Positions 1-12,335 of a stretch of DNA of 64,000 nucleotides are shown in pieces. Every line of letters begins with the position of its first letter. Positions within the stretch are counted from its first letter, which is position 1. The DNA is from Escherichia coli (lineage in GTDB: Bacteria; Pseudomonadota; Gammaproteobacteria; Enterobacterales; Enterobacteriaceae): assembly GCF_003334335.1 (NCBI RefSeq), contig NZ_QOWQ01000013.1, one strand, 5' to 3'. Both the position numbers and the translations under genes were made by a program. The notes beneath the pieces are model-generated. The model saw only the letters and a program-made list of their open reading frames with translations, searched no databases and had not been told where the DNA came from.

Positions 1-672
1 CATTTTATCAATCGCAAACAGGCTCATCGCTTTTGGGTCCATCGCCTGTTCAATCGCACTCCAGCCGCCAACGTGAACAACGGCGAGAATAGCCATCAAT
101 ATAAAGCCAAAGAACAGAATTAAGGCCTGAATGGTGTCTGTCCACACTACCGCCGAATAACCGCCGATAATAACGTAAATCGCAAAAGCTAAGGCGATAA
201 TTAATTTTGCTACAGTAAGATCAATACCTGTTGCCCAGGCAAGATACATACTGCCACCTAATATATGCGCCCCCAGCCAGCCAATAGAGGCAATAAATAT
301 CATCAGGCCGACAATATTTTTAATTAAATGACTCCCGCCAGTATAATAAGATATTTCTTCACTCATGGTCATAAAACGTAATTTACGTACCGGTGCAAAC
401 AGCCACGCCACCAGTAATATACCTACGGCCCCACCGACGCCATAAAGCATTCCGGCCCAGCCATTGCTGTAGCCAAAGCCCACGGCGCCCATACTGGAAC
501 CCGTGCCAACCATCGTGGCAACGGTTGAGCCCAGCGTCAGAAACAGCGGCAACGAACGCCCGCCCAGCAGAAAATCTTCTCCGCTTTTCTGATTACGAGA
601 CACAAACCAACCAAGCCAAATCATGGCGATGGCATAAATAATAAAGCCGACTAAAAAGATATGACTGTTCAT
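1..672 (-). CDS. Sodium:solute symporter (SSS) family transporter, N-terminal part; C-terminus lies beyond window start
   Basis: Open frame on minus strand from ATG at 672 to window edge; translation MNSHIFLVGFIIYAIAMIWLGWFVSRNQKSGEDFLLGGRS... is hydrophobic with multiple TM-like segments typical of SSS permeases. Confidence 0.65.
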   Translation of the reverse strand, partial: MNSHIFLVGFIIYAIAMIWLGWFVSRNQKSGEDFLLGGRSLPLFLTLGSTVATMVGTGSSMGAVGFGYSNGWAGMLYGVGGAVGILLVAWLFAPVRKLRFMTMSEEISYYTGGSHLIKNIVGLMIFIASIGWLGAHILGGSMYLAWATGIDLTVAKLIIALAFAIYVIIGGYSAVVWTDTIQALILFFGFILMAILAVVHVGGWSAIEQAMDPKAMSLFAIDKM

Positions 673-774
673 AATTCACATCCTGCCAGTAGAGAGAGAA
701 TAAAGTAAGAGTTCCCGGAGTGCTGAATGTATTCAGCACTCAATTGCGGTCTATTTTTTTAATTCTTAAATTTA

Positions 775-1164
775 TTAGCGGGTCGCGTTATAACAGGTCA
801 CATCGACTTCAACTTTACAATCGACAACCAGATCAGCTACACAACAAATACGTGCAGGCGGATTCTCGCCAAAAAATTCTCTGAATACTTTATTAAATGA
901 CTGGAAATAGCGGGCGTCGGTCAGGATCACTTTCACGTGAACCACATCCGCCAGGCTATAACCGGCTTCAGTCATGATGTCGACACAGTTTTGGATCGCC
1001 AGTCGTGACTGTTCAACGATACCGCCTTCTACCACTTCACCGTTTTTCATGGGGGTTTGCCCGGAGACGTACAGCCAGCCGCCCGCCTCAACCGCCCTGG
1101 CAAACGGCAAATGCTGCCCGCCAGTGCCTGTTCCACCTTCCGTACCGTAACGTTTAATACTCAT
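775..1164 (-). CDS. RidA/YjgF-family reactive-intermediate deaminase-like protein
   Basis: ORF track 775..1170; AAGGAG RBS 5 nt upstream of the ATG at 1164; about 129 aa, size and composition typical of the RidA family. Confidence 0.7.
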   Translation of the reverse strand: MSIKRYGTEGGTGTGGQHLPFARAVEAGGWLYVSGQTPMKNGEVVEGGIVEQSRLAIQNCVDIMTEAGYSLADVVHVKVILTDARYFQSFNKVFREFFGENPPARICCVADLVVDCKVEVDVTCYNATR

Positions 1165-1173
1165 ATTCACTCC

Positions 1174-2625
1174 TTAATGTGAGGTCTGGCGGCGCAGGAA
1201 GCGTCCCGCACGGCCTGTAATGTGTTTATCGCGACCATAGCTCATAACGCCGTTCACCATCACCGCCTCAATGCCATCTGCCGGGCGTTTGGGATCAGAA
1301 AAGCTGGCAACATCACGAATGGTTTGTGGATCGAACAACACCAGGTCCGCAAAATAGCCGACTTTCACCAGCCCACGCTGAGGCAGACGAAAACGGCTGG
1401 CAGAAAGCCCGGTCATTTTGTGGATAGCCGTGGTCAGTGGGAATAAGCCTTCATCACGGCAATAGTGACCCAGCACGCGAGGGAAAGCGCCCCATAAACG
1501 CGGATGCGGCATGGGATCATTGGGCAGTCCGTCAGAGCCAATCATACTGACCGGATAACTCAACACTCTGCGGACGTCGCGCTCGTCCATGTTGTAATAG
1601 ATAGCCCCGGCAGGCATCAGCAACTTCGCGGCCTCCAGCATACTCATCTGCCAGTCGATGGCGATTTGTGCCAGTGTTTTCCCGGCCTGCTGCGGATGTG
1701 TTTGTGACCAGGTGATCACAATATCGAATTCGTCGGTGACTTGTTTGAGATCCAGCGTTGAAGAACTGGCCGAGTAAGGGTAGACATCGCAGCCAATTTC
1801 CTGGTGTTGACGCATTTGGTCAAAAAAGGCCAACGTTTCTTTTGTCCGCCCCCAGTTTTTCGCCCCGGCGCATTTATGGTGGGAAACCACGACAGGCACT
1901 TTGCCATGACGCCCAATACGAAACGCCTCATCCAGGGCATCGAGAATCGGTTCAAATTCAGAACGCAGATGGGTGGTATAAACGCCCTTCTCACCGGCTA
2001 ATTCTTCCGCCAGCGCCATGACTTCTTCGGTAGTCGCCTGAAATGCCGTTGCATAGGCCAGCCCGGAACTTAACCCCAGCGCCCCCTGACTCAACGCCAG
2101 ACGTAAGTCGGCACGCATAGCGGCAATTTCATCCACCGTCGCCGGGCGAAACAGGTCGTCCATATGGTTATTACGCAGCGCCGTATGACCAATCAGCGTG
2201 CCAACGTTCAGTGACGGCCTGGCTGCTTCCACTGCCTGGGCATAGCTTTCAACGGTAGGATAAATAAAGTGCTCTGCTTCCCCCAACAGATTCATCGGGT
2301 CAGGAACTTCACCTTTCATTTTCGCCGACGCCGCACTGATCCCGCAGTTACCGACAATCACCGTAGTGATCCCCTGGCTGATCTTTGGCAGATATTCCGG
2401 GATGCGAATAACGTTGATATCGTCATGGGTATGAACGTCGATAAACCCTGGTGCCAGCACCCGCCCTTCCCCGTCAATGACCTGCTGCGCCGTAACGTTA
2501 AGCGCAGGGGCAATATCGACAATCCGATCACCTGTTATTGCCACGTCACCGCGAAATTCAGGGCCGCCGCTACCGTCGATAACGGTCACATTTTTGATTA
2601 ACCAGTCAACCTGCATGTTCGTCAC
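1174..2625 (-). CDS. N-acyl-D-amino-acid deacylase (D-aminoacylase), metal-dependent amidohydrolase
   Basis: 483-aa ORF; N-terminal GFIDVHTHDD metal-binding motif and overall amidohydrolase-like sequence; GGAG RBS upstream. Confidence 0.8.
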   Translation of the reverse strand: MTNMQVDWLIKNVTVIDGSGGPEFRGDVAITGDRIVDIAPALNVTAQQVIDGEGRVLAPGFIDVHTHDDINVIRIPEYLPKISQGITTVIVGNCGISAASAKMKGEVPDPMNLLGEAEHFIYPTVESYAQAVEAARPSLNVGTLIGHTALRNNHMDDLFRPATVDEIAAMRADLRLALSQGALGLSSGLAYATAFQATTEEVMALAEELAGEKGVYTTHLRSEFEPILDALDEAFRIGRHGKVPVVVSHHKCAGAKNWGRTKETLAFFDQMRQHQEIGCDVYPYSASSSTLDLKQVTDEFDIVITWSQTHPQQAGKTLAQIAIDWQMSMLEAAKLLMPAGAIYYNMDERDVRRVLSYPVSMIGSDGLPNDPMPHPRLWGAFPRVLGHYCRDEGLFPLTTAIHKMTGLSASRFRLPQRGLVKVGYFADLVLFDPQTIRDVASFSDPKRPADGIEAVMVNGVMSYGRDKHITGRAGRFLRRQTSH

Positions 2626-2816
2626 TCCATTTCTGCAATGGTGACAAGTTAACCATTTACAAGGACGAAAAACAGTGGAAAACTACGCAAAACCCAGATG
2701 ATTTTATGATACTTTTATTCATAAATAATAAGATAAATAAACTAAATATTTATATTTCATTTAGTTACAAATGATACTCACATCCGATACGGTGAAAAAC
2801 TTAAAAGGTAAATGTT

Positions 2817-4037
2817 ATGAAATACCACTCAGAACCTCTGGTTCCCCATAAATCTGCCCTGATGCAAATGCCCGCAAATCTCCTTGCCGAAGATGTCTGT
2901 TTACCTGCCGCGATCATTAAAAAGCAGGCCCTGGAGAACAACATTACGTGGATGCAACGCTACGCTGACGCGCGCGGCGTTTCACTGGCACCGCACGGTA
3001 AAACCACCATGACGCCGTGGATTTTTCAGGCGCAGCAGGCGGCTGGTGCCTGGGCAATAGGTGTCGGTAGCGCATGGCAGGCTGGTGCGGCAATGGCGAG
3101 CGGTATTCAGCGAGTGCTGATGGTTAACCAGCTGGTCGGCAAGGCGAATATGCAGTTGATTGCCCAGTTGCAACAACATTACCCGACGGTCGATTTTATC
3201 TGCTGTATCGACAGCATTGAGAACGCCCGCGCTTTGTCTGCCTTTTTTGCCAGTCAGCAACAGACACTGAACGTGATGATTGAACTGGGTGTTCCCGGCG
3301 GGCGCTGTGGTTGCCGCTCAACGGATGCCGCACTGGCACTGGCTAAACAGGCAGCCCAATTACCGGGGTTACGCCTGCGGGGGCTTGAGTTATATGAAGG
3401 CGTTTTACACGGTGACGATCCACAACCGCAGGTAGAAGCTCTGCTGCGGGATGCCGCACAACTGGCCTGTGATATGGCAAATCTGGTTGATGGCGAGTTT
3501 ATTCTCACCGGAGCAGGCACGGTCTGGTATGACGTGGTGTGCAATATCTGGCTGGCGGCAGAAAAGCCTGATAACTGCCGCATTGTTATTCGCCCTGGCT
3601 GCTACATCACTCACGACACCGGGATCTACGACGCGGCACAACAACAGTTGCTTGCCCGTGATCCTGTGGCCTGCGATCTGGCAGGCGATCTCACATCTGC
3701 GCTGGAACTGGTCGCCATGGTGCAATCGGTGCCGGAAGCTGATCGTGCGGTGGTAAATTTTGGTAAGCGTGATTGCGCCTTCGACGCCGGACTGCCGCAA
3801 CCAGTCGCCCACTACCGCAACGGCAAATCACTGGCATTTGATCCACAGGCGATTCGCAGTACAGGTATTATGGATCAGCACTGCATGTTGCAACTGTCAG
3901 CTAATAGCGACGTGCAAGTGGGGGATATTCTGGTGTTTGGCACATCGCATCCGTGCCTGACCTTCGACAAATGGAAAACGTTGTTATTGACTGATGACGA
4001 CTACAACGTACTGGCAGAATTAGACACTCTCTTCTAA
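2817..4037 (+). CDS. PLP-dependent alanine-racemase-fold enzyme (DSD1 / D-serine dehydratase-like or D-threonine aldolase-like)
   Basis: 406-aa ORF with putative PLP lysine in APHGKT near N-terminus; divergent from the D-aminoacylase gene; followed by hairpin terminator. Confidence 0.7.
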   Translation: MKYHSEPLVPHKSALMQMPANLLAEDVCLPAAIIKKQALENNITWMQRYADARGVSLAPHGKTTMTPWIFQAQQAAGAWAIGVGSAWQAGAAMASGIQRVLMVNQLVGKANMQLIAQLQQHYPTVDFICCIDSIENARALSAFFASQQQTLNVMIELGVPGGRCGCRSTDAALALAKQAAQLPGLRLRGLELYEGVLHGDDPQPQVEALLRDAAQLACDMANLVDGEFILTGAGTVWYDVVCNIWLAAEKPDNCRIVIRPGCYITHDTGIYDAAQQQLLARDPVACDLAGDLTSALELVAMVQSVPEADRAVVNFGKRDCAFDAGLPQPVAHYRNGKSLAFDPQAIRSTGIMDQHCMLQLSANSDVQVGDILVFGTSHPCLTFDKWKTLLLTDDDYNVLAELDTLF

Positions 4038-4042
4038 GAACG

Positions 4043-4076
4043 CCCCTTCGGTTAATTATCGAAGGGGCATTTTTAT
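4043..4076 (+). terminator. Rho-independent terminator after the DSD1-like gene
   Basis: GC stem ccccttcg / cgaagggg followed by T-run cattttta. Confidence 0.6.
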
Positions 4077-4304
4077 TGTGATCTCAATCACATATCCACC
4101 CGACGAATAATTCTTGCCCAACCGCTCACCGCCATTCCTGACCGCTTACATCCCTAAAATAACCACTCAGTTATTTACCTTACTTTACGCGCGCGTAACT
4201 CTGGCAACATCACTGCAGGATAGCGGTCAATTTACCTCCTCAAACGCAACGCAAACCTAGAACGGCTTCGGCCAACTATTAATCAATACATGCCAGGTTT
4301 TACT

Positions 4305-6455
4305 ATGGATACTAAAAAGATATTCAAGCACATACCCTGGGTGATTCTCGGAATCATCGGTGCATTCTGCCTCGCGGTAGTTGCATTACGTCGGGGGGAG
4401 CACGTCAGTGCCCTGTGGATCGTGGTCGCCTCTGTGTCGGTGTATCTGGTGGCTTATCGCTACTACAGTCTGTACATCGCCCAGAAGGTGATGAAACTCG
4501 ACCCCACGCGCGCGACGCCTGCGGTTATTAACAACGACGGTCTGAACTACGTTCCGACCAACCGTTACGTGTTGTTTGGTCACCACTTCGCCGCTATCGC
4601 CGGTGCTGGTCCGCTGGTTGGTCCGGTTCTCGCCGCGCAGATGGGCTACCTGCCTGGCACGCTGTGGCTGCTGGCGGGGGTAGTGCTGGCCGGTGCAGTA
4701 CAGGACTTTATGGTACTGTTTATCTCCTCTCGCCGTAACGGCGCATCTCTCGGTGAGATGATCAAAGAAGAGATGGGACCAGTACCGGGGACTATCGCGC
4801 TGTTTGGCTGTTTCTTAATCATGATCATCATCCTTGCCGTCCTGGCGCTGATTGTGGTTAAAGCCCTGGCCGAAAGTCCGTGGGGTGTCTTCACCGTTTG
4901 CTCAACCGTACCGATTGCGCTGTTTATGGGTATCTACATGCGCTTTATTCGTCCGGGGCGTGTGGGTGAAGTCTCTGTCATTGGTATCGTGCTGCTGGTT
5001 GCCTCTATCTACTTCGGTGGCGTGATTGCTCACGATCCGTACTGGGGTCCGGCACTGACCTTTAAAGACACCACCATTACCTTCGCGCTGATTGGCTATG
5101 CGTTTGTTTCCGCACTGCTGCCAGTGTGGCTGATCCTCGCACCGCGCGACTATCTGGCAACCTTCCTGAAAATCGGCGTTATCGTCGGCCTGGCGCTGGG
5201 TATCGTGGTGTTGAACCCGGAACTGAAAATGCCTGCGATGACCCAGTACATTGACGGTACTGGCCCGCTGTGGAAAGGCGCTCTGTTCCCGTTCCTGTTC
5301 ATCACCATCGCCTGTGGTGCGGTATCTGGCTTCCACGCGCTGATCTCTTCCGGCACGACACCGAAACTGCTGGCTAACGAAACCGACGCGCGTTTCATTG
5401 GCTACGGCGCAATGCTGATGGAGTCCTTCGTGGCGATTATGGCGCTGGTTGCTGCGTCCATCATCGAACCGGGTCTTTACTTCGCGATGAATACCCCGCC
5501 TGCTGGCCTTGGCATCACCATGCCTAACCTGCATGAAATGGGTGGCGAGAACGCGCCGATCATCATGGCGCAGCTGAAAGACGTTACCGCACACGCGGCA
5601 GCGACCGTCAGCTCCTGGGGCTTCGTGATTTCGCCAGAGCAGATCCTGCAAACAGCGAAAGATATTGGTGAGCCTTCTGTCCTGAACCGTGCAGGTGGTG
5701 CGCCGACGCTGGCGGTAGGTATCGCTCACGTGTTCCACAAAGTGCTGCCGATGGCTGACATGGGCTTCTGGTATCACTTCGGTATTCTGTTCGAAGCCCT
5801 GTTCATCCTGACCGCGCTGGATGCGGGTACCCGTTCTGGCCGCTTTATGCTGCAAGACCTGCTGGGTAACTTCATCCCGTTCCTGAAAAAAACCGACTCT
5901 CTGGTTGCCGGTATCATCGGTACTGCGGGCTGTGTGGGTCTGTGGGGCTACCTGCTGTATCAGGGCGTGGTCGATCCGCTGGGCGGCGTTAAGAGCCTGT
6001 GGCCGCTGTTCGGTATCTCCAACCAGATGCTGGCAGCCGTAGCGCTGGTACTGGGCACCGTTGTGCTGATTAAGATGAAGCGCACCCAATACATCTGGGT
6101 AACTGTTGTTCCGGCTGTATGGCTGCTTATCTGCACCACCTGGGCGCTGGGCCTGAAACTGTTCAGCACCAACCCGCAGATGGAAGGCTTCTTCTACATG
6201 GCAAGCCAGTACAAAGAGAAGATTGCTAACGGTACTGACCTGACGGCACAGCAGATTGCCAACATGAACCACATCGTTGTGAACAACTACACCAACGCGG
6301 GCCTGAGTATTCTGTTCCTGATTGTGGTGTACAGCATCATCTTCTACGGTTTCAAAACCTGGCTGAAGGTGCGTAACAGCGACAAACGTACTGACAAAGA
6401 AACTCCGTACGTTCCAATCCCGGAAGGCGGCGTGAAGATCTCTTCGCACCACTAA
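4305..6455 (+). CDS. btsT: Pyruvate/H+ symporter BtsT (CstA family; YjiY)
   Basis: ORF 4290..6455; recalled K-12 N-terminus MDTKKIFKHIPWVILG gives start 4305 (716 aa); polytopic membrane protein. Confidence 0.93.
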   Translation: MDTKKIFKHIPWVILGIIGAFCLAVVALRRGEHVSALWIVVASVSVYLVAYRYYSLYIAQKVMKLDPTRATPAVINNDGLNYVPTNRYVLFGHHFAAIAGAGPLVGPVLAAQMGYLPGTLWLLAGVVLAGAVQDFMVLFISSRRNGASLGEMIKEEMGPVPGTIALFGCFLIMIIILAVLALIVVKALAESPWGVFTVCSTVPIALFMGIYMRFIRPGRVGEVSVIGIVLLVASIYFGGVIAHDPYWGPALTFKDTTITFALIGYAFVSALLPVWLILAPRDYLATFLKIGVIVGLALGIVVLNPELKMPAMTQYIDGTGPLWKGALFPFLFITIACGAVSGFHALISSGTTPKLLANETDARFIGYGAMLMESFVAIMALVAASIIEPGLYFAMNTPPAGLGITMPNLHEMGGENAPIIMAQLKDVTAHAAATVSSWGFVISPEQILQTAKDIGEPSVLNRAGGAPTLAVGIAHVFHKVLPMADMGFWYHFGILFEALFILTALDAGTRSGRFMLQDLLGNFIPFLKKTDSLVAGIIGTAGCVGLWGYLLYQGVVDPLGGVKSLWPLFGISNQMLAAVALVLGTVVLIKMKRTQYIWVTVVPAVWLLICTTWALGLKLFSTNPQMEGFFYMASQYKEKIANGTDLTAQQIANMNHIVVNNYTNAGLSILFLIVVYSIIFYGFKTWLKVRNSDKRTDKETPYVPIPEGGVKISSHH

Positions 6456-6464
6456 CCGTGTTTA

Positions 6465-6491
6465 GCCCCGCTTCGGCGGGGCTTTGTTCTT
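6465..6491 (+). terminator. Rho-independent terminator after btsT
   Basis: Stem gccccgc / gcggggc with ttcg loop, followed by tttgttctt. Confidence 0.65.
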
Positions 6492-6504
6492 ATCAGAGTG
6501 AACT

Positions 6505-6708
6505 ATGTTTGGTAACTTAGGACAGGCAAAAAAATATCTCGGCCAGGCGGCGAAGATGTTGATTGGCATTCCAGACTACGACAACTACGTCGAGCATATG
6601 AAGACCAACCATCCCGACAAGCCGTACATGAGCTATGAAGAATTCTTCCGCGAACGCCAGAACGCGCGCTACGGCGGCGATGGTAAAGGCGGTATGCGCT
6701 GTTGTTAA
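6505..6708 (+). CDS. yjiX: DUF466 small protein YjiX (CstA-associated)
   Basis: 67-aa ORF immediately downstream of btsT; sequence [33 protein letters not shown]... matches YjiX family. Confidence 0.9.
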
Positions 6709-7720: not shown

Positions 7721-8635
7721 TCACTCAAAATAGTCCATATCCAGTTTCGGCACCTTCAACAAACGTGAAGAAACCCCTACTTCGTTTTCGATCATTAAGT
7801 GCACCAGGCGTTCCCCATCAACCAACACCATACCCTCAACGGATTGGGCAAAGTCACGCGCCTGAGAAGTAAATCCAGAAGTGGTAATAAACACCCCACG
7901 TTTCGCTTTTTGCCCAGCCAGTGCGCCGTAAAATGCCTGTAATTCTGGCCTGCCTACAGTATTCTGCCAACGTTTTGCCTGAACATAAACTTTCTCCAGG
8001 CCAAGTTTATCAAGCGATATCACACCATCGATGCCACCATCTCCAGTACCGCCAACACGCTGCAAATCATCACGGTGGCCGCCATACCCCAGGCGATGCA
8101 AAACATCCAGAACAATGACTTCAAAGCGCGAAGGAGAAACCTGCAATAAGTTTTCCAGAGCCTCATCAGCCACCGCATCACGAAGCTCTTTTAGCGCCTG
8201 ATCTAACCGATCGTCCGGGCTGCTCTTTGCAAGTTCTTCATGATCGGGAGAGTCGGCTTTCGGATCTAAATCGACGGCATCCGGCCGTGACTTAAGTTTG
8301 ACATTCACAAAATCGAAGGCCAGATGGTTCGTCTCCTGCTCCGTCATTGGCTGGGGATGAGACGCAACCCAGTCAAAACCCGCAGGAGTCAGGCACCATT
8401 TGCCACGCGACAAACTTTGCGACAACCCGGCACGTTTTAAACGGTCATGCGCCCAGCCTGCACGATTTTTATAAACAAGTTGTCCGCTGGTAATGACTTT
8501 CGCTCGCTGGCTGTCATCCAGTCCTAATGCATCCGCGGCAGCCTCATGAACATCACGCGCGGCTGCACCTTCCGGTTTTGTCGCCAGATAACGCAGAACA
8601 GGTTCAATAAATTTGTCATAGGTTGGAACCGTCAT
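7721..8635 (-). CDS. mrr: Mrr modification-dependent (Type IV) restriction endonuclease
   Basis: 304-aa ORF; recognised as Mrr by sequence and by position next to hsdR. Confidence 0.93.
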   Translation of the reverse strand: MTVPTYDKFIEPVLRYLATKPEGAAARDVHEAAADALGLDDSQRAKVITSGQLVYKNRAGWAHDRLKRAGLSQSLSRGKWCLTPAGFDWVASHPQPMTEQETNHLAFDFVNVKLKSRPDAVDLDPKADSPDHEELAKSSPDDRLDQALKELRDAVADEALENLLQVSPSRFEVIVLDVLHRLGYGGHRDDLQRVGGTGDGGIDGVISLDKLGLEKVYVQAKRWQNTVGRPELQAFYGALAGQKAKRGVFITTSGFTSQARDFAQSVEGMVLVDGERLVHLMIENEVGVSSRLLKVPKLDMDYFE

Positions 8636-8822
8636 AGTACATCCTTGCAGAATCAGGTAGATGTTTTTCGGCTACTATAACACTACCAAAATAGGCGAAC
8701 ACGTTAGAAATGAGTCAGTTGCTGTGACCGTGGTCATTGCCCGGAAAGGTACAGAAAGCTAAGATGAGATGTTATGGGCCTTAAATATTTGGACAGGCCC
8801 GCACAGCAATGGATTAATAACA

Positions 8823-11800
8823 ATGATGAATAAATCCAATTTTGAATTCCTGAAGGGCGTCAACGACTTCACTTATGCCATCGCCTGTGCGGCGGAAAAT
8901 AACTACCCGGATGATCCCAACACGACGCTGATTAAAATGCGTATGTTTGGCGAAGCCACAGCGAAACATCTTGGTCTGTTACTCAACATCCCCCCTTGTG
9001 AGAATCAACACGATCTCCTGCGCGAACTCGGCAAAATCGCCTTCGTTGATGACAACATCCTCTCTGTATTCCACAAATTACGCCGCATTGGTAACCAGGC
9101 GGTGCACGAATATCATAACGATCTCGACGATGCCCAGATGTGTCTGCGGCTCGGGTTCCGCCTGGCTGTCTGGTACTACCGTCTGGTCACCAAAGATTAT
9201 GACTTCCCGGTGCCGGTGTTTGTGTTGCCGGAACGTGGCAAAAACCTCTATTACCAGGAAGTGCTGACGCTAAAACAACAGCTTGAACAGCAGGCGCGAG
9301 AAAAAGCGCAGACTCAGGCAGAAGTCGAAGCGCAACAGCAGAAGCTGGTTGCCCTGAACGGCTATATCGCCATTCTGGAAGGCAAACAGCAGGAAACAGA
9401 AGCGCAAACCCAGGCTCGCCTTGCGGCGCTGGAAGCACAGCTTGCCGAGAAGAACGCGGAACTGGCAAAACAGACCGAACAGGAACGTAAGGCTTACCAC
9501 AAAGAAATTACCGATCAGGCCATCAAGCGCACACTCAACCTTAGCGAAGAAGAGAGTCGCTTCCTGATTGACGCGCAACTGCGTAAAGCAGGCTGGCAGG
9601 CCGATAGCAAAACCCTGCGCTTCTCCAAAGGCGCGCGCCCGGAACCCGGCGTCAATAAAGCCATTGCCGAATGGCCGACCGGGAAAGATGAAACGGGTAA
9701 TCAGGGCTTTGCGGATTATGTGCTGTTTGTCGGCCTCAAGCCCATCGCGGTGGTAGAGGCGAAACGTAAAAATATCGACGTTCCCGGCAAGCTCAATGAG
9801 TCGTATCGCTACAGCAAATGCTTCGATAATGGCTTCCTGCGGGAAACCTTGCTTGAGCATTACTCGCCGGATGAAGTGCATGAAGCGGTGCCGGAGTATG
9901 AAACCAGCTGGCAGGACACCAGCGGCCAACAACGGTTTAAAATCCCCTTCTGCTACTCGACCAACGGGCGCGAATACCGCGCAGCAATGAAAACTAAAAG
10001 CGGCATCTGGTATCGCGACGTGCGTGATACCCGTAATATGTCGAAAGCCTTACCCGAGTGGCATCGCCCGGAAGAGCTGCTGGAAATGCTCGGCAGTGAA
10101 CCGCAAAAACAGAATCAGTGGTTTGCCGATAACCCTGGCATGAGCGAGCTGGGCCTGCGTTATTATCAGGAAGATGCCGTCCGCGCGGTTGAAAAGGCAA
10201 TCGTCAAGGGTCAACAAGAGATCCTGCTGGCGATGGCGACCGGTACCGGTAAAACCCGTACGGCAATCGCCATGATGTTCCGCCTGATCCAGTCCCAGCG
10301 TTTTAAACGCATTCTCTTCCTTGTCGACCGCCGTTCTCTTGGCGAGCAGGCGCTGGGGGCGTTTGAAGATACGCGTATTAACGGCGACACTTTCAACAGC
10401 ATTTTCGACATTAAAGGGCTGACGGATAAATTCCCCGAAGACAGCACCAAAATTCACGTTGCCACCGTACAGTCGCTGGTGAAACGCACCCTGCAATCAG
10501 ATGAACCGATGCCGGTGGCCCGTTACGACTGTATCGTCGTCGATGAAGCGCATCGCGGCTATATTCTCGATAAAGAGCAGACCGAAGGCGAACTGCAGTT
10601 TCGCAGCCAGCTGGATTATGTCTCTGCCTACCGTCGCATTCTCGATCACTTCGATGCGGTAAAAATCGCCCTCACCGCCACCCCGGCGCTGCATACTGTG
10701 CAGATTTTCGGCGAGCCGGTTTACCGTTATACCTACCGTACCGCGGTTATCGACGGTTTTCTGATCGACCAGGATCCGCCTATTCAGATCATCACCCGCA
10801 ACGCGCAGGAGGGGGTTTATCTCTCCAAAGGCGAGCAGGTAGAGCGCATCAGCCCGCAGGGAGAAGTGATCAACGACACCCTGGAAGACGATCAGGATTT
10901 TGAGGTCGCCGACTTTAACCGTGGCCTGGTGATCCCGGCGTTTAACCGCGCCGTCTGTAACGAACTCACCAATTATCTTGACCCGACCGGGTCACAAAAA
11001 ACGCTGGTCTTCTGCGTCACTAATGCCCATGCCGATATGGTGGTGGAAGAGCTGCGTGCCGCGTTCAAGAAAAAGTATCCGCAACTGGAGCACGACGCGA
11101 TCATCAAGATCACCGGTGATGCCGATAAAGACGCGCGCAAAGTGCAGACCATGATCACCCGCTTCAATAAAGAGCGGTTGCCCAATATCGTGGTGACCGT
11201 CGACCTGCTGACGACCGGCGTCGATATTCCGTCGATCTGTAATATCGTGTTCCTGCGTAAAGTACGCAGCCGCATTCTGTACGAACAGATGAAAGGCCGC
11301 GCCACGCGCTTATGCCCGGAGGTGAATAAAACTAGCTTTAAGATTTTTGACTGTGTCGATATCTACAGCACGCTGGAGAGCGTCGACACCATGCGTCCGG
11401 TGGTGGTGCGCCCGAAGGTGGAACTGCAAACGCTGGTCAACGAAATTACCGATTCAGAAACCTATAAAATCACCGAAGCGGATGGCCGCAGTTTTGCCGA
11501 GCACAGCCATGAACAACTGGTGGCGAAGCTCCAGCGCATCATCGGCCTGGCCACGTTTAACCGTGACCGCAGCGAAACGATAGATAAACAGGTGCGTCGT
11601 CTGGATGAGCTATGCCAGGACGCGGCGGGGGTGAACTTTAACGGCTTCGCCTCGCGTCTGCGGGAAAAAGGACCGCACTGGAGCGCCGAAGTCTTTAACA
11701 AACTGCCTGGCTTTATCGCCCGTCTGGAAAAGCTGAAAACCGATATCAACAATCTGAATGATGCGCCGATCTTCCTCGATATCGACGATGAAGTGGTGAG

Positions 11801-12335
11801 TGTAAAATCGCTGTACGGTGATTACGACACACCGCAGGATTTCCTCGAAGCCTTTGACTCGCTGGTGCAACGTTCCCCGAACGCGCAACCGGCATTGCAG
11901 GCGGTGATCAATCGCCCGCGCGATCTCACCCGTAAAGGGCTGGTCGAGCTACAGGAGTGGTTTGACCGCCAGCACTTTGAGGAATCTTCCCTGCGCAAAG
12001 CATGGAAAGAGACGCGCAATGAAGATATCGCCGCCCGGCTGATTGGTCATATTCGCCGCGCTGCGGTGGGCGATGCGCTGAAACCGTTTGAGGAACGTGT
12101 CGATCACGCGCTGACGCGTATCAAGGGCGAAAACGACTGGAGCAGCGAGCAATTAAGCTGGCTCGATCGTTTAGCGCAGGCGCTGAAAGAGAAAGTGGTG
12201 CTCGACGACGATGTCTTCAAAACCGGCAACTTCCACCGTCGCGGCGGGAAGGCGATGCTGCAAAGAACCTTTGACGATAATCTCGATACCCTGCTGGGCA
12301 AATTCAGCGATTACATCTGGGACGAGCTCGCCTGA
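8823..12335 (+). CDS. hsdR: Type I restriction enzyme R subunit HsdR (EcoKI family, IA)
   Basis: ORF 8769..12335; recalled EcoKI N-terminus MMNKSNFEFLKG gives start 8823 (1170 aa); helicase motifs GTGKT and DEAH visible. Confidence 0.95.
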   Translation: MMNKSNFEFLKGVNDFTYAIACAAENNYPDDPNTTLIKMRMFGEATAKHLGLLLNIPPCENQHDLLRELGKIAFVDDNILSVFHKLRRIGNQAVHEYHNDLDDAQMCLRLGFRLAVWYYRLVTKDYDFPVPVFVLPERGKNLYYQEVLTLKQQLEQQAREKAQTQAEVEAQQQKLVALNGYIAILEGKQQETEAQTQARLAALEAQLAEKNAELAKQTEQERKAYHKEITDQAIKRTLNLSEEESRFLIDAQLRKAGWQADSKTLRFSKGARPEPGVNKAIAEWPTGKDETGNQGFADYVLFVGLKPIAVVEAKRKNIDVPGKLNESYRYSKCFDNGFLRETLLEHYSPDEVHEAVPEYETSWQDTSGQQRFKIPFCYSTNGREYRAAMKTKSGIWYRDVRDTRNMSKALPEWHRPEELLEMLGSEPQKQNQWFADNPGMSELGLRYYQEDAVRAVEKAIVKGQQEILLAMATGTGKTRTAIAMMFRLIQSQRFKRILFLVDRRSLGEQALGAFEDTRINGDTFNSIFDIKGLTDKFPEDSTKIHVATVQSLVKRTLQSDEPMPVARYDCIVVDEAHRGYILDKEQTEGELQFRSQLDYVSAYRRILDHFDAVKIALTATPALHTVQIFGEPVYRYTYRTAVIDGFLIDQDPPIQIITRNAQEGVYLSKGEQVERISPQGEVINDTLEDDQDFEVADFNRGLVIPAFNRAVCNELTNYLDPTGSQKTLVFCVTNAHADMVVEELRAAFKKKYPQLEHDAIIKITGDADKDARKVQTMITRFNKERLPNIVVTVDLLTTGVDIPSICNIVFLRKVRSRILYEQMKGRATRLCPEVNKTSFKIFDCVDIYSTLESVDTMRPVVVRPKVELQTLVNEITDSETYKITEADGRSFAEHSHEQLVAKLQRIIGLATFNRDRSETIDKQVRRLDELCQDAAGVNFNGFASRLREKGPHWSAEVFNKLPGFIARLEKLKTDINNLNDAPIFLDIDDEVVSVKSLYGDYDTPQDFLEAFDSLVQRSPNAQPALQAVINRPRDLTRKGLVELQEWFDRQHFEESSLRKAWKETRNEDIAARLIGHIRRAAVGDALKPFEERVDHALTRIKGENDWSSEQLSWLDRLAQALKEKVVLDDDVFKTGNFHRRGGKAMLQRTFDDNLDTLLGKFSDYIWDELA

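Follow-up and report, generated by a model that had tools for sequence, protein, structure and literature searches.

The C1-oxidised product of N-acetylglucosamine (GlcNAc) or chitin is 2-acetamido-2-deoxy-D-gluconate (GlcNAc1A). The ong cluster of Pseudoalteromonas prydzensis ACAM 620, which serves the oxidative use of chitin and GlcNAc1A, has been characterised genetically and biochemically: the sodium:solute symporter (SSS) OngIT imports GlcNAc1A, OngB deacetylates it, the deaminase PpOngC converts glucosaminate to 2-keto-3-deoxy-gluconate (KDG), the RidA protein OngD is essential in vivo, and the RpiR-family repressor OngR controls the ong genes (Jiang et al., 2022; PMC9537276). In Supplementary Data 3 of that study, an ong cluster is credited to about 14 Escherichia coli strains, to E. 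fergusonii and to an Escherichia sp.; in all of these, ongC, ongR, ongB, ongD and ongIT are scored as present, and lpmo, ongOT-1, kdgK and ongA as absent (PMC9537276). By homology, the E. coli island is already known as a putative ong cluster. The copy considered here lies at the left end of a 64,000-nucleotide stretch of E. coli DNA (hereafter the window; assembly GCF_003334335.1, contig NZ_QOWQ01000013.1), and it is probably an accessory catabolic island of five genes that are orthologous to the ong pathway's cytoplasmic core, with a free oxidised N-acetyl-hexosamine as substrate. The features of the locus within the window are as follows.

1 to 672, minus strand: ongIT-like SSS gene; start codon at 672, with the N-terminal 224 of 489 codons in the window
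775 to 1164, minus strand: ongD-like RidA-family gene, 129 amino acids; TIGR00004 match
1174 to 2616, minus strand: ongB-like deacetylase gene, 480 amino acids, D-aminoacylase fold; Pfam Amidohydro_3, E 7e-41
2617 to 2816, no strand: divergent ongB/ongC control region, with conserved blocks in a nine-region alignment
2817 to 4037, plus strand: ongC-like gene for a deaminase of fold type III that depends on pyridoxal 5'-phosphate (PLP), 406 amino acids; Pfam Ala_racemase_N and D-ser_dehydrat
4042 to 4075 (also delimited as 4042 to 4068), plus strand: strong intrinsic terminator after ongC, at the right end of the island; a GC-rich stem of 11 pairs, then a T run

The remainder of the symporter gene lies beyond the left edge of the window, its full-length version occupying L001:11203-12672; an RpiR/MurR-family regulator gene (L001:10330-11193) is found approximately 0.8 kb to the left of the window, and the five genes are contiguous (L001:10330-16037). 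In the corresponding region of E. coli LR-03, which is 99.8% identical, the order is tsr, RpiR/MurR regulator, SSS, RidA, deacylase, "amino acid deaminase" and btsT. A preliminary description, made from the sequence alone, had placed the symporter, RidA and deacylase genes on the minus strand with a PLP enzyme divergent from them, and had recommended looking for a regulator further upstream; the positions agree with the open reading frame (ORF) listing and translations, the family assignments are upheld by profile searches (Pfam, NCBIfam), and the RpiR/MurR gene outside the left edge is such a regulator. Identical proteins are annotated by RefSeq in other E. coli genomes; since, in addition, dN/dS between E. 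coli alleles is only 0 to 0.055, the four genes are real and not chance ORFs. When complete E. coli genomes with at least 80% of window positions 1-4300 are counted as carriers, the island is present in 194 of 5426 genomes (3.6%, approximately 1 in 28), including human, poultry, bovine and wastewater isolates.

The best match of the deacylase in the Protein Data Bank (PDB) is KleDacyl of Klebsiella pneumoniae (9G5M; E 9e-282, 84% identity), followed by PpOngB, deposited as a "carbohydrate de-N-acetylated protein" (9KB1; E 6e-167, 54% identity, gapless); the classic D-aminoacylase 1M7J scores below both (E 3e-136). Fourteen of the 15 residues listed for PpOngB as binding GlcNAc1A or lining the cavity (PMC12017989) are identical in the E. 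coli deacylase (L116, A193, Y194, E226, K254, A256, Y285, S290, S291, S292, Q298, D368, L370 and R379 in PpOngB numbering), and the sole cavity change is from G348 of PpOngB to Asn342 of E. coli. The metal-site and catalytic positions H62, H64, C91, H216, H246 and D362 are invariant, D362 corresponding to the catalytic Asp368 of PpOngB. Ser292 and Gln298 of PpOngB (Ser286 and Gln292 of the E. coli protein) have experimental support as the determinants that set GlcNAc1A deacetylases apart from D-aminoacylases, in which Thr is followed by Leu or Arg at these positions, and mutation at positions 292/298 cripples each enzyme class (PMC12017989). Judged by these residues and by the hexonate kinases and aldolases of homologous clusters, the deacylase most probably does not act on a proteinogenic N-acyl-D-amino acid; an N-acetylated 2-amino-2-deoxy-hexonic acid, GlcNAc1A or its C4 epimer, is the likelier substrate.

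The PLP enzyme matches PDB 3GWQ, a "D-serine deaminase", at E 3e-107, and the OngC protein of Vibrio matches the same structure equally well; with 44% identity over their full length, the E. coli and Vibrio proteins can be placed in one 3GWQ-like subfamily. The E. coli protein has the PLP-lysine motif PHGKT and the C-terminal H-x-C motif SHPC. The H-x-C pattern is presumably the signature of Zn-dependent D-serine dehydratases, and we likewise take SHPC to be the metal-ligand motif. In the alignment, D-threonine aldolase 4v15 has SHVD (H-x-D) where OngC has SHPC, a difference that favours elimination over aldol cleavage as the predicted reaction. The preliminary description had proposed an alanine-racemase-fold, DSD1-like enzyme acting as a PLP dehydratase or aldolase: the fold and DSD1 affinity are borne out by the Ala_racemase_N and D-ser_dehydrat domains, the HGKT lysine and the H-x-C motif, and the dehydratase or deaminase option stands, whereas the aldolase option is disfavoured by SHPC versus SHVD and by the deaminase function of the OngC homologue. 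Identity as a D-threonine or 3-hydroxyaspartate aldolase was also tried and rejected, with 106 bits on the BhcC model against a cut-off of 690.

The RidA-family protein matches the TIGR00004 Rid family at E 3e-23 (82 bits, under the curated cut-off of 106) and carries a PAR motif at the expected position, whose arginine we take to be the conserved catalytic Arg of the family; the transporter matches the NCBIfam model TIGR00813 (sss) at E 3.8e-49. Compared with an ong cluster of Vibrio (L076), the E. coli proteins are 86% (OngD), 68% (OngIT), 61% (OngB), 54% (OngR) and 44% (OngC) identical, and identities to a second Vibrio ong cluster (L051) fall within 1-3 points of these values, so that the two clusters together give 84-86% for OngD and 67-68% for OngIT. 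OngB-like genes with Ser292, Gln298 and Gly348 occur also in many Pseudomonas species (L014-L081), where the one partner gene, on the upstream side, codes for an RpiR-family regulator; homologues of OngC, OngD and OngIT were not detected near them at the thresholds used, and NCBIfam annotation of the Pseudomonas neighbours, dependent on ORF calls in high-GC DNA, gave nothing usable.

In the pathway proposed for E. coli, the OngIT-like symporter would import a free N-acetyl-2-amino-2-deoxy-D-hexonate, either GlcNAc1A or its C4 epimer N-acetyl-D-galactosaminate, or both; the metal-dependent OngB-like amidohydrolase would take off the acetyl group; and the OngC-like enzyme would catalyze alpha,beta-elimination of the C3 hydroxyl and the amine, yielding a 2-keto-3-deoxy-hexonate and ammonia. 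The OngD-like RidA protein presumably speeds hydrolysis of the enamine/imine, and the RpiR/MurR regulator would repress the divergent ongB-ongD-ongIT and ongC units. A linked KdgK, with or without a 2-keto-3-deoxy-6-phosphogluconate (KDPG) aldolase, was found in none of the 194 E. coli carriers; with no kinase or aldolase in the island, the keto-deoxy acid must be finished by chromosomal enzymes, which would be KdgK and Eda for the gluco form or DgoK and DgoA for the galacto form. The genes kdgK and eda belong to the E. coli core, and 5020 of the 5426 E. coli genomes carry dgoK and dgoA; the core genome can supply either lower pathway. Since no AA10 lytic polysaccharide monooxygenase (LPMO), outer-membrane TonB receptor OngOT or glycoside hydrolase family 20 (GH20) hexosaminidase OngA was found in or beside the E. 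coli island, the system appears suited to scavenging of the free monomer and not to degradation of oxidised chitin.

Several points weigh against this assignment. The E. coli cluster itself contains no kinase or aldolase; in the clusters of its nearest relatives, DgoK and DgoA take the place of KdgK and Eda, and the literal assignment to GlcNAc1A may be wrong for the enterobacterial lineage; a literature search turned up no report in which an enterobacterial cluster was tried on GlcNAc1A; PpOngC is reported in the literature to deaminate D-Ser and D-Thr as well; and KleDacyl hydrolyzes N-acetyl-D-Met, -Phe and -Trp, if poorly (Km 19-32 mM, kcat/Km 1.5-2.8 per min per mM; PMC12149444). The activities of PpOngC on D-Ser and D-Thr, and of the 84% identical KleDacyl, which is D-specific and measurably active on N-acetyl-D-Met, -Phe, -Trp and -aminobutyrate (PMC12149444), are also what a generic N-acyl-D-amino-acid or D-Ser/D-Thr pathway would account for, in which import and deacylation are followed by dehydration to pyruvate or 2-oxobutyrate and RidA quenches the enamine. 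Such a pathway is nevertheless unlikely here: with a Km of at least 19 mM, KleDacyl reaches a kcat/Km of approximately 50 per M per s, compared to approximately 1600 for PpOngB on GlcNAc1A; the specificity positions are occupied by Ser and Gln, not by Thr and Leu/Arg; PpOngB and two homologues were inactive on ten N-acetyl-D-amino acids; and the breakdown of D-Ser, D-Thr or D-Met has no use for the hexonate kinases and aldolases that sister clusters carry. The coherent pathway for an N-acyl or D-amino acid envisaged in the preliminary description thus retains its logic of deacylation, PLP-dependent ammonia elimination and RidA, but loses its substrate class, given Ser286/Gln292 and the homologous clusters with hexonate kinases and aldolases.

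Within the reading as an N-acetyl-hexosaminate pathway, the configuration of the substrate can be approached through the lower-pathway genes of related clusters. Between ongIT and ongR, the clusters of Leclercia, Klebsiella, Rahnella, Cedecea, Buttiauxella and others have two additional genes. The first encodes a DGOK-family kinase (Pfam E 4e-90; PDB 3R1X E 3e-92) and the second an aldolase that scores 302 bits on the 2-keto-3-deoxy-6-phosphogalactonate (KDPGal) aldolase model versus 116 on the eda model and shares 66-71% identity with E. coli DgoA; this kinase/aldolase pair recurs in Paraburkholderia clusters. Determinants of stereoselectivity have been described for KDPGal- versus KDPG-type aldolases (PMC4915726). 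The in-cluster aldolases have both KDPGal-type determinants, an L-[IV]-A-I-L beta1 strand (Ile12-type) and Val154. At position 154, the aldolase of the Vibrio cluster carries the Thr of the KDPG type; the alignment did not extend to its beta1 strand. The Klebsiella in-cluster kinase is clearly divergent in alignment from the canonical DgoK of 3R1X, and is therefore best regarded as a dedicated paralogue. Position 348 of OngB is Asn in every Dgo-linked sequence, in two separate clades of the neighbor-joining tree, and Gly or Cys in every Kdg-linked sequence; Arg275 co-varies in the same way. Among OngC sequences, only two conservative columns (V/I and L/V) separate the Dgo from the Kdg type, and these provide no epimer signal.

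Since PLP-dependent alpha,beta-elimination leaves C4 untouched and the lower pathway is specific for 2-keto-3-deoxy-D-galactonate, the substrate of the Dgo-type clusters would be galacto-configured, i.e., N-acetyl-D-galactosaminate. We put forward tentatively, as a possibility that falls somewhat short of even chances, that the enterobacterial and Burkholderiales cluster is a pathway for N-acetyl-D-galactosaminate, or C1-oxidised N-acetylgalactosamine (GalNAc), via deacetylation, PLP-dependent deamination to 2-keto-3-deoxy-D-galactonate and the DgoK/DgoA paralogues, with Asn348 (plus Arg275) as its marker, and that Escherichia has lost the pair and uses the core dgo (or kdg) genes. The distinction between Dgo and Kdg types is absent from the literature, and in this analysis only the galacto reading is potentially new; a literature search on the catabolism of galactosaminate or oxidised GalNAc (GalNAc1A) found nothing relevant. 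A few kb from the Klebsiella ong-like cluster, K. pneumoniae locus L088:17411-21440 contains a sigma-54 activator (PRD and EIIA-man domains) followed by mannose-family phosphotransferase system (PTS) genes for IIA, IIB and IIC, which could be another amino-sugar or amino-sugar-acid system; the match of the activator to NCBIfam DagR is far under the cut-off, and these genes were not used as evidence.

The E. coli version of the cluster appears to be reduced from the Dgo type. E. coli OngB, with Asn342, nests within the Dgo-type enterobacterial clade, and the gap between ongIT and ongR is 9 bp in all 194 carriers, with no kinase or aldolase between them; the dedicated kinase/aldolase pair has therefore been lost in Escherichia. 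Despite this loss, the five genes are under strong purifying selection: dN/dS between two E. coli alleles is 0-0.055 for all of them (dS 0.03-0.10), and 0.04-0.16 relative to Klebsiella. A decaying remnant, i.e., a non-functional leftover of the kinase/aldolase loss that is being deleted in most lineages, is highly improbable; it would fit the presence of the island in only 3.6% of complete genomes, the absence from all 194 carriers of the dgoK/dgoA pair that Klebsiella and Leclercia have between ongIT and ongR, and the nature of the tsr-btsT site as a variable hotspot with hpa or other cargo in other strains, but the reading frames are all intact and of full length compared with Klebsiella, the low dN/dS between E. 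coli alleles holds for every gene, regulatory footprints are conserved, and the core genome supplies both KdgK/Eda and DgoK/DgoA. As an observation on the transporter, E. coli OngIT is 83-85% identical to its counterparts in Cedecea and Rahnella (L005, L009, L013) and 73-75% to those in Klebsiella and Leclercia (L002, L087), the pattern of OngB is the opposite (84% versus 77-79% identity), and the dN/dS of ongIT relative to Klebsiella is higher (0.16), which suggests that the transporter end of the cluster is mosaic or recombined, possibly in connection with the loss of dgoKA.

The spacing of the genes, with 9 bp between ongB and ongD and 102 bp between ongD and ongIT, and a search that found no convincing terminator between ongB, ongD and ongIT, suggest an ongB-ongD-ongIT operon divergent from ongC. 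In the control region between ongB and ongC, four blocks (2646-2663, 2668-2692, 2707-2721 and 2755-2776) show little or no variation when nine intergenic regions from nine Enterobacterales genera are aligned, within an otherwise variable, AT-rich spacer; an imperfect inverted repeat is found at 2734-2767. These blocks are candidate promoter or OngR operator elements. A promoter scan of the region found sigma-70-like sites no more frequently than in shuffled sequence, and an Rfam scan of window positions 1-6600 found no RNA family, the one CRISPR-DR match being at chance level (E 0.61).

Comparison with K-12 shows how the island is set into the chromosome. Approximately 5.9 kb stand where K-12 has 135 bp of private intergenic DNA between tsr and btsT; K-12 homology has its left limit 60 bp upstream of the tsr start codon and resumes on the right at window position 4122, and the functional right edge of the island is at approximately 4070, just past the ongC terminator. 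The preliminary description had regarded these genes as strain-specific content, which the count of 194 in 5426 genomes bears out, and had named tsr as the K-12 occupant of this position; tsr is displaced, not replaced. The private 135 bp of K-12 have only a CRP-site-like segment, a diverged copy, in common with the right end of the island, and this segment was all that was found when remnants or direct repeats were sought at the junctions. The island contains no mobility genes and no tRNA, and its GC content (51%) is typical of the host.

Other strains have different cargo at the same site. E. coli O145 RM9154 (L084) has an hpa (4-hydroxyphenylacetate) cluster between tsr and btsT, and shares with the island strains a 63 bp segment (window 4059-4121) that is also found in approximately 2050 genomes without the island. 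E. coli TUM9803 (L085) has the five genes together with a hydroxyproline-type cluster (Ldh_2, APC permease, aldehyde dehydrogenase, DHDPS, AraC and hydroxyproline-epimerase) at the tsr-btsT site, and the same arrangement is found in K. pneumoniae (L086-L088); the Klebsiella cluster adjoins lgoT, lgoR and lgoD, and the Leclercia cluster adjoins tsr and hpa genes. The tsr-btsT intergenic site is a cargo hotspot. The locus is syntenic across the Enterobacteriaceae, and the island looks ancestral with repeated loss, rather than the result of a recent mobile insertion.

To the right of the island, btsT starts at window position 4290. Directly past the island terminator, a perfect CRP-type palindrome, TGTGATCTCAATCACA, occupies positions 4077-4092, and two direct repeats ACCGCT[C/T]A are located at 4121-4128 and 4141-4148; these elements resemble what we take to be the sites at which cAMP-CRP and BtsR (YehT) act in the promoter of btsT. 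The island appears to fit precisely into the space that separates the control regions of btsT and tsr, with neither disturbed. What remains of the left third of the window is immigration-control DNA of the usual kind, with mrr (7721-8635, minus strand) and hsdR (8769-12335, plus strand), and looks ordinary; near-identical genomes carry on past hsdR with hsdM, hsdS, symE and mcrBC.

The main value of this analysis is a better annotation, in which these genes are assigned to a pathway for oxidised amino sugars (N-acetyl-hexosaminates), whose core they would form. Carrier strains may scavenge sugar acids produced by the LPMOs or hexosamine oxidases of other organisms, and oxidative chemistry in the gut of the host is a possible further source; such scavenging is a plausible niche determinant. 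If the galacto reading is true, it gives approximately 4% of strains access to an oxidised sugar acid derived from mucin or glycans. The Dgo versus Kdg split, if true, would give the enzyme family a second substrate, recognisable by a simple marker in the sequence, and would suggest a different native substrate for the Klebsiella "D-acylase" biocatalyst.

The E. coli island shares with the ong cluster of P. prydzensis the five functions OngIT, OngB, OngC, OngD and OngR and the binding residues of OngB; the two differ in layout, ongB-ongD-ongIT being divergent from ongC in E. coli, in contrast to ongCRBD and ongIT-kdgK-ongA in P. prydzensis, and in the OngB cavity at position 348, which is Asn in E. 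coli and Gly in P. prydzensis. Relative to the D-galactonate pathway of E. coli (dgoRKADT), paralogues of DgoK and DgoA are found inside the ong-like clusters of Klebsiella, Leclercia, Rahnella and Paraburkholderia, yet these clusters are without the DgoD dehydratase and DgoT; their 2-keto-3-deoxy acid would come from an amino acid sugar by way of the PLP deaminase. True D-aminoacylases combine Thr292 with Leu298 (AfDam type) or Arg298 (BbDam type) in a hydrophobic or basic side-chain pocket, whereas the E. coli deacylase, whose pocket is small and polar and contains Ser and Gln, does not share the D-aminoacylase signature. KleDacyl (PDB 9G5M/9GV8) has been described solely in its use as a biocatalyst, with N-acetyl-D-amino acids as substrates, in a study that does not mention the ong pathway (PMC12149444); its gene resembles the E. 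coli locus in its context, with ongC facing ongB, ongD and ongIT and with ongR further on, and its cluster differs from the E. coli island in that it keeps the dgoK-like and dgoA-like genes.

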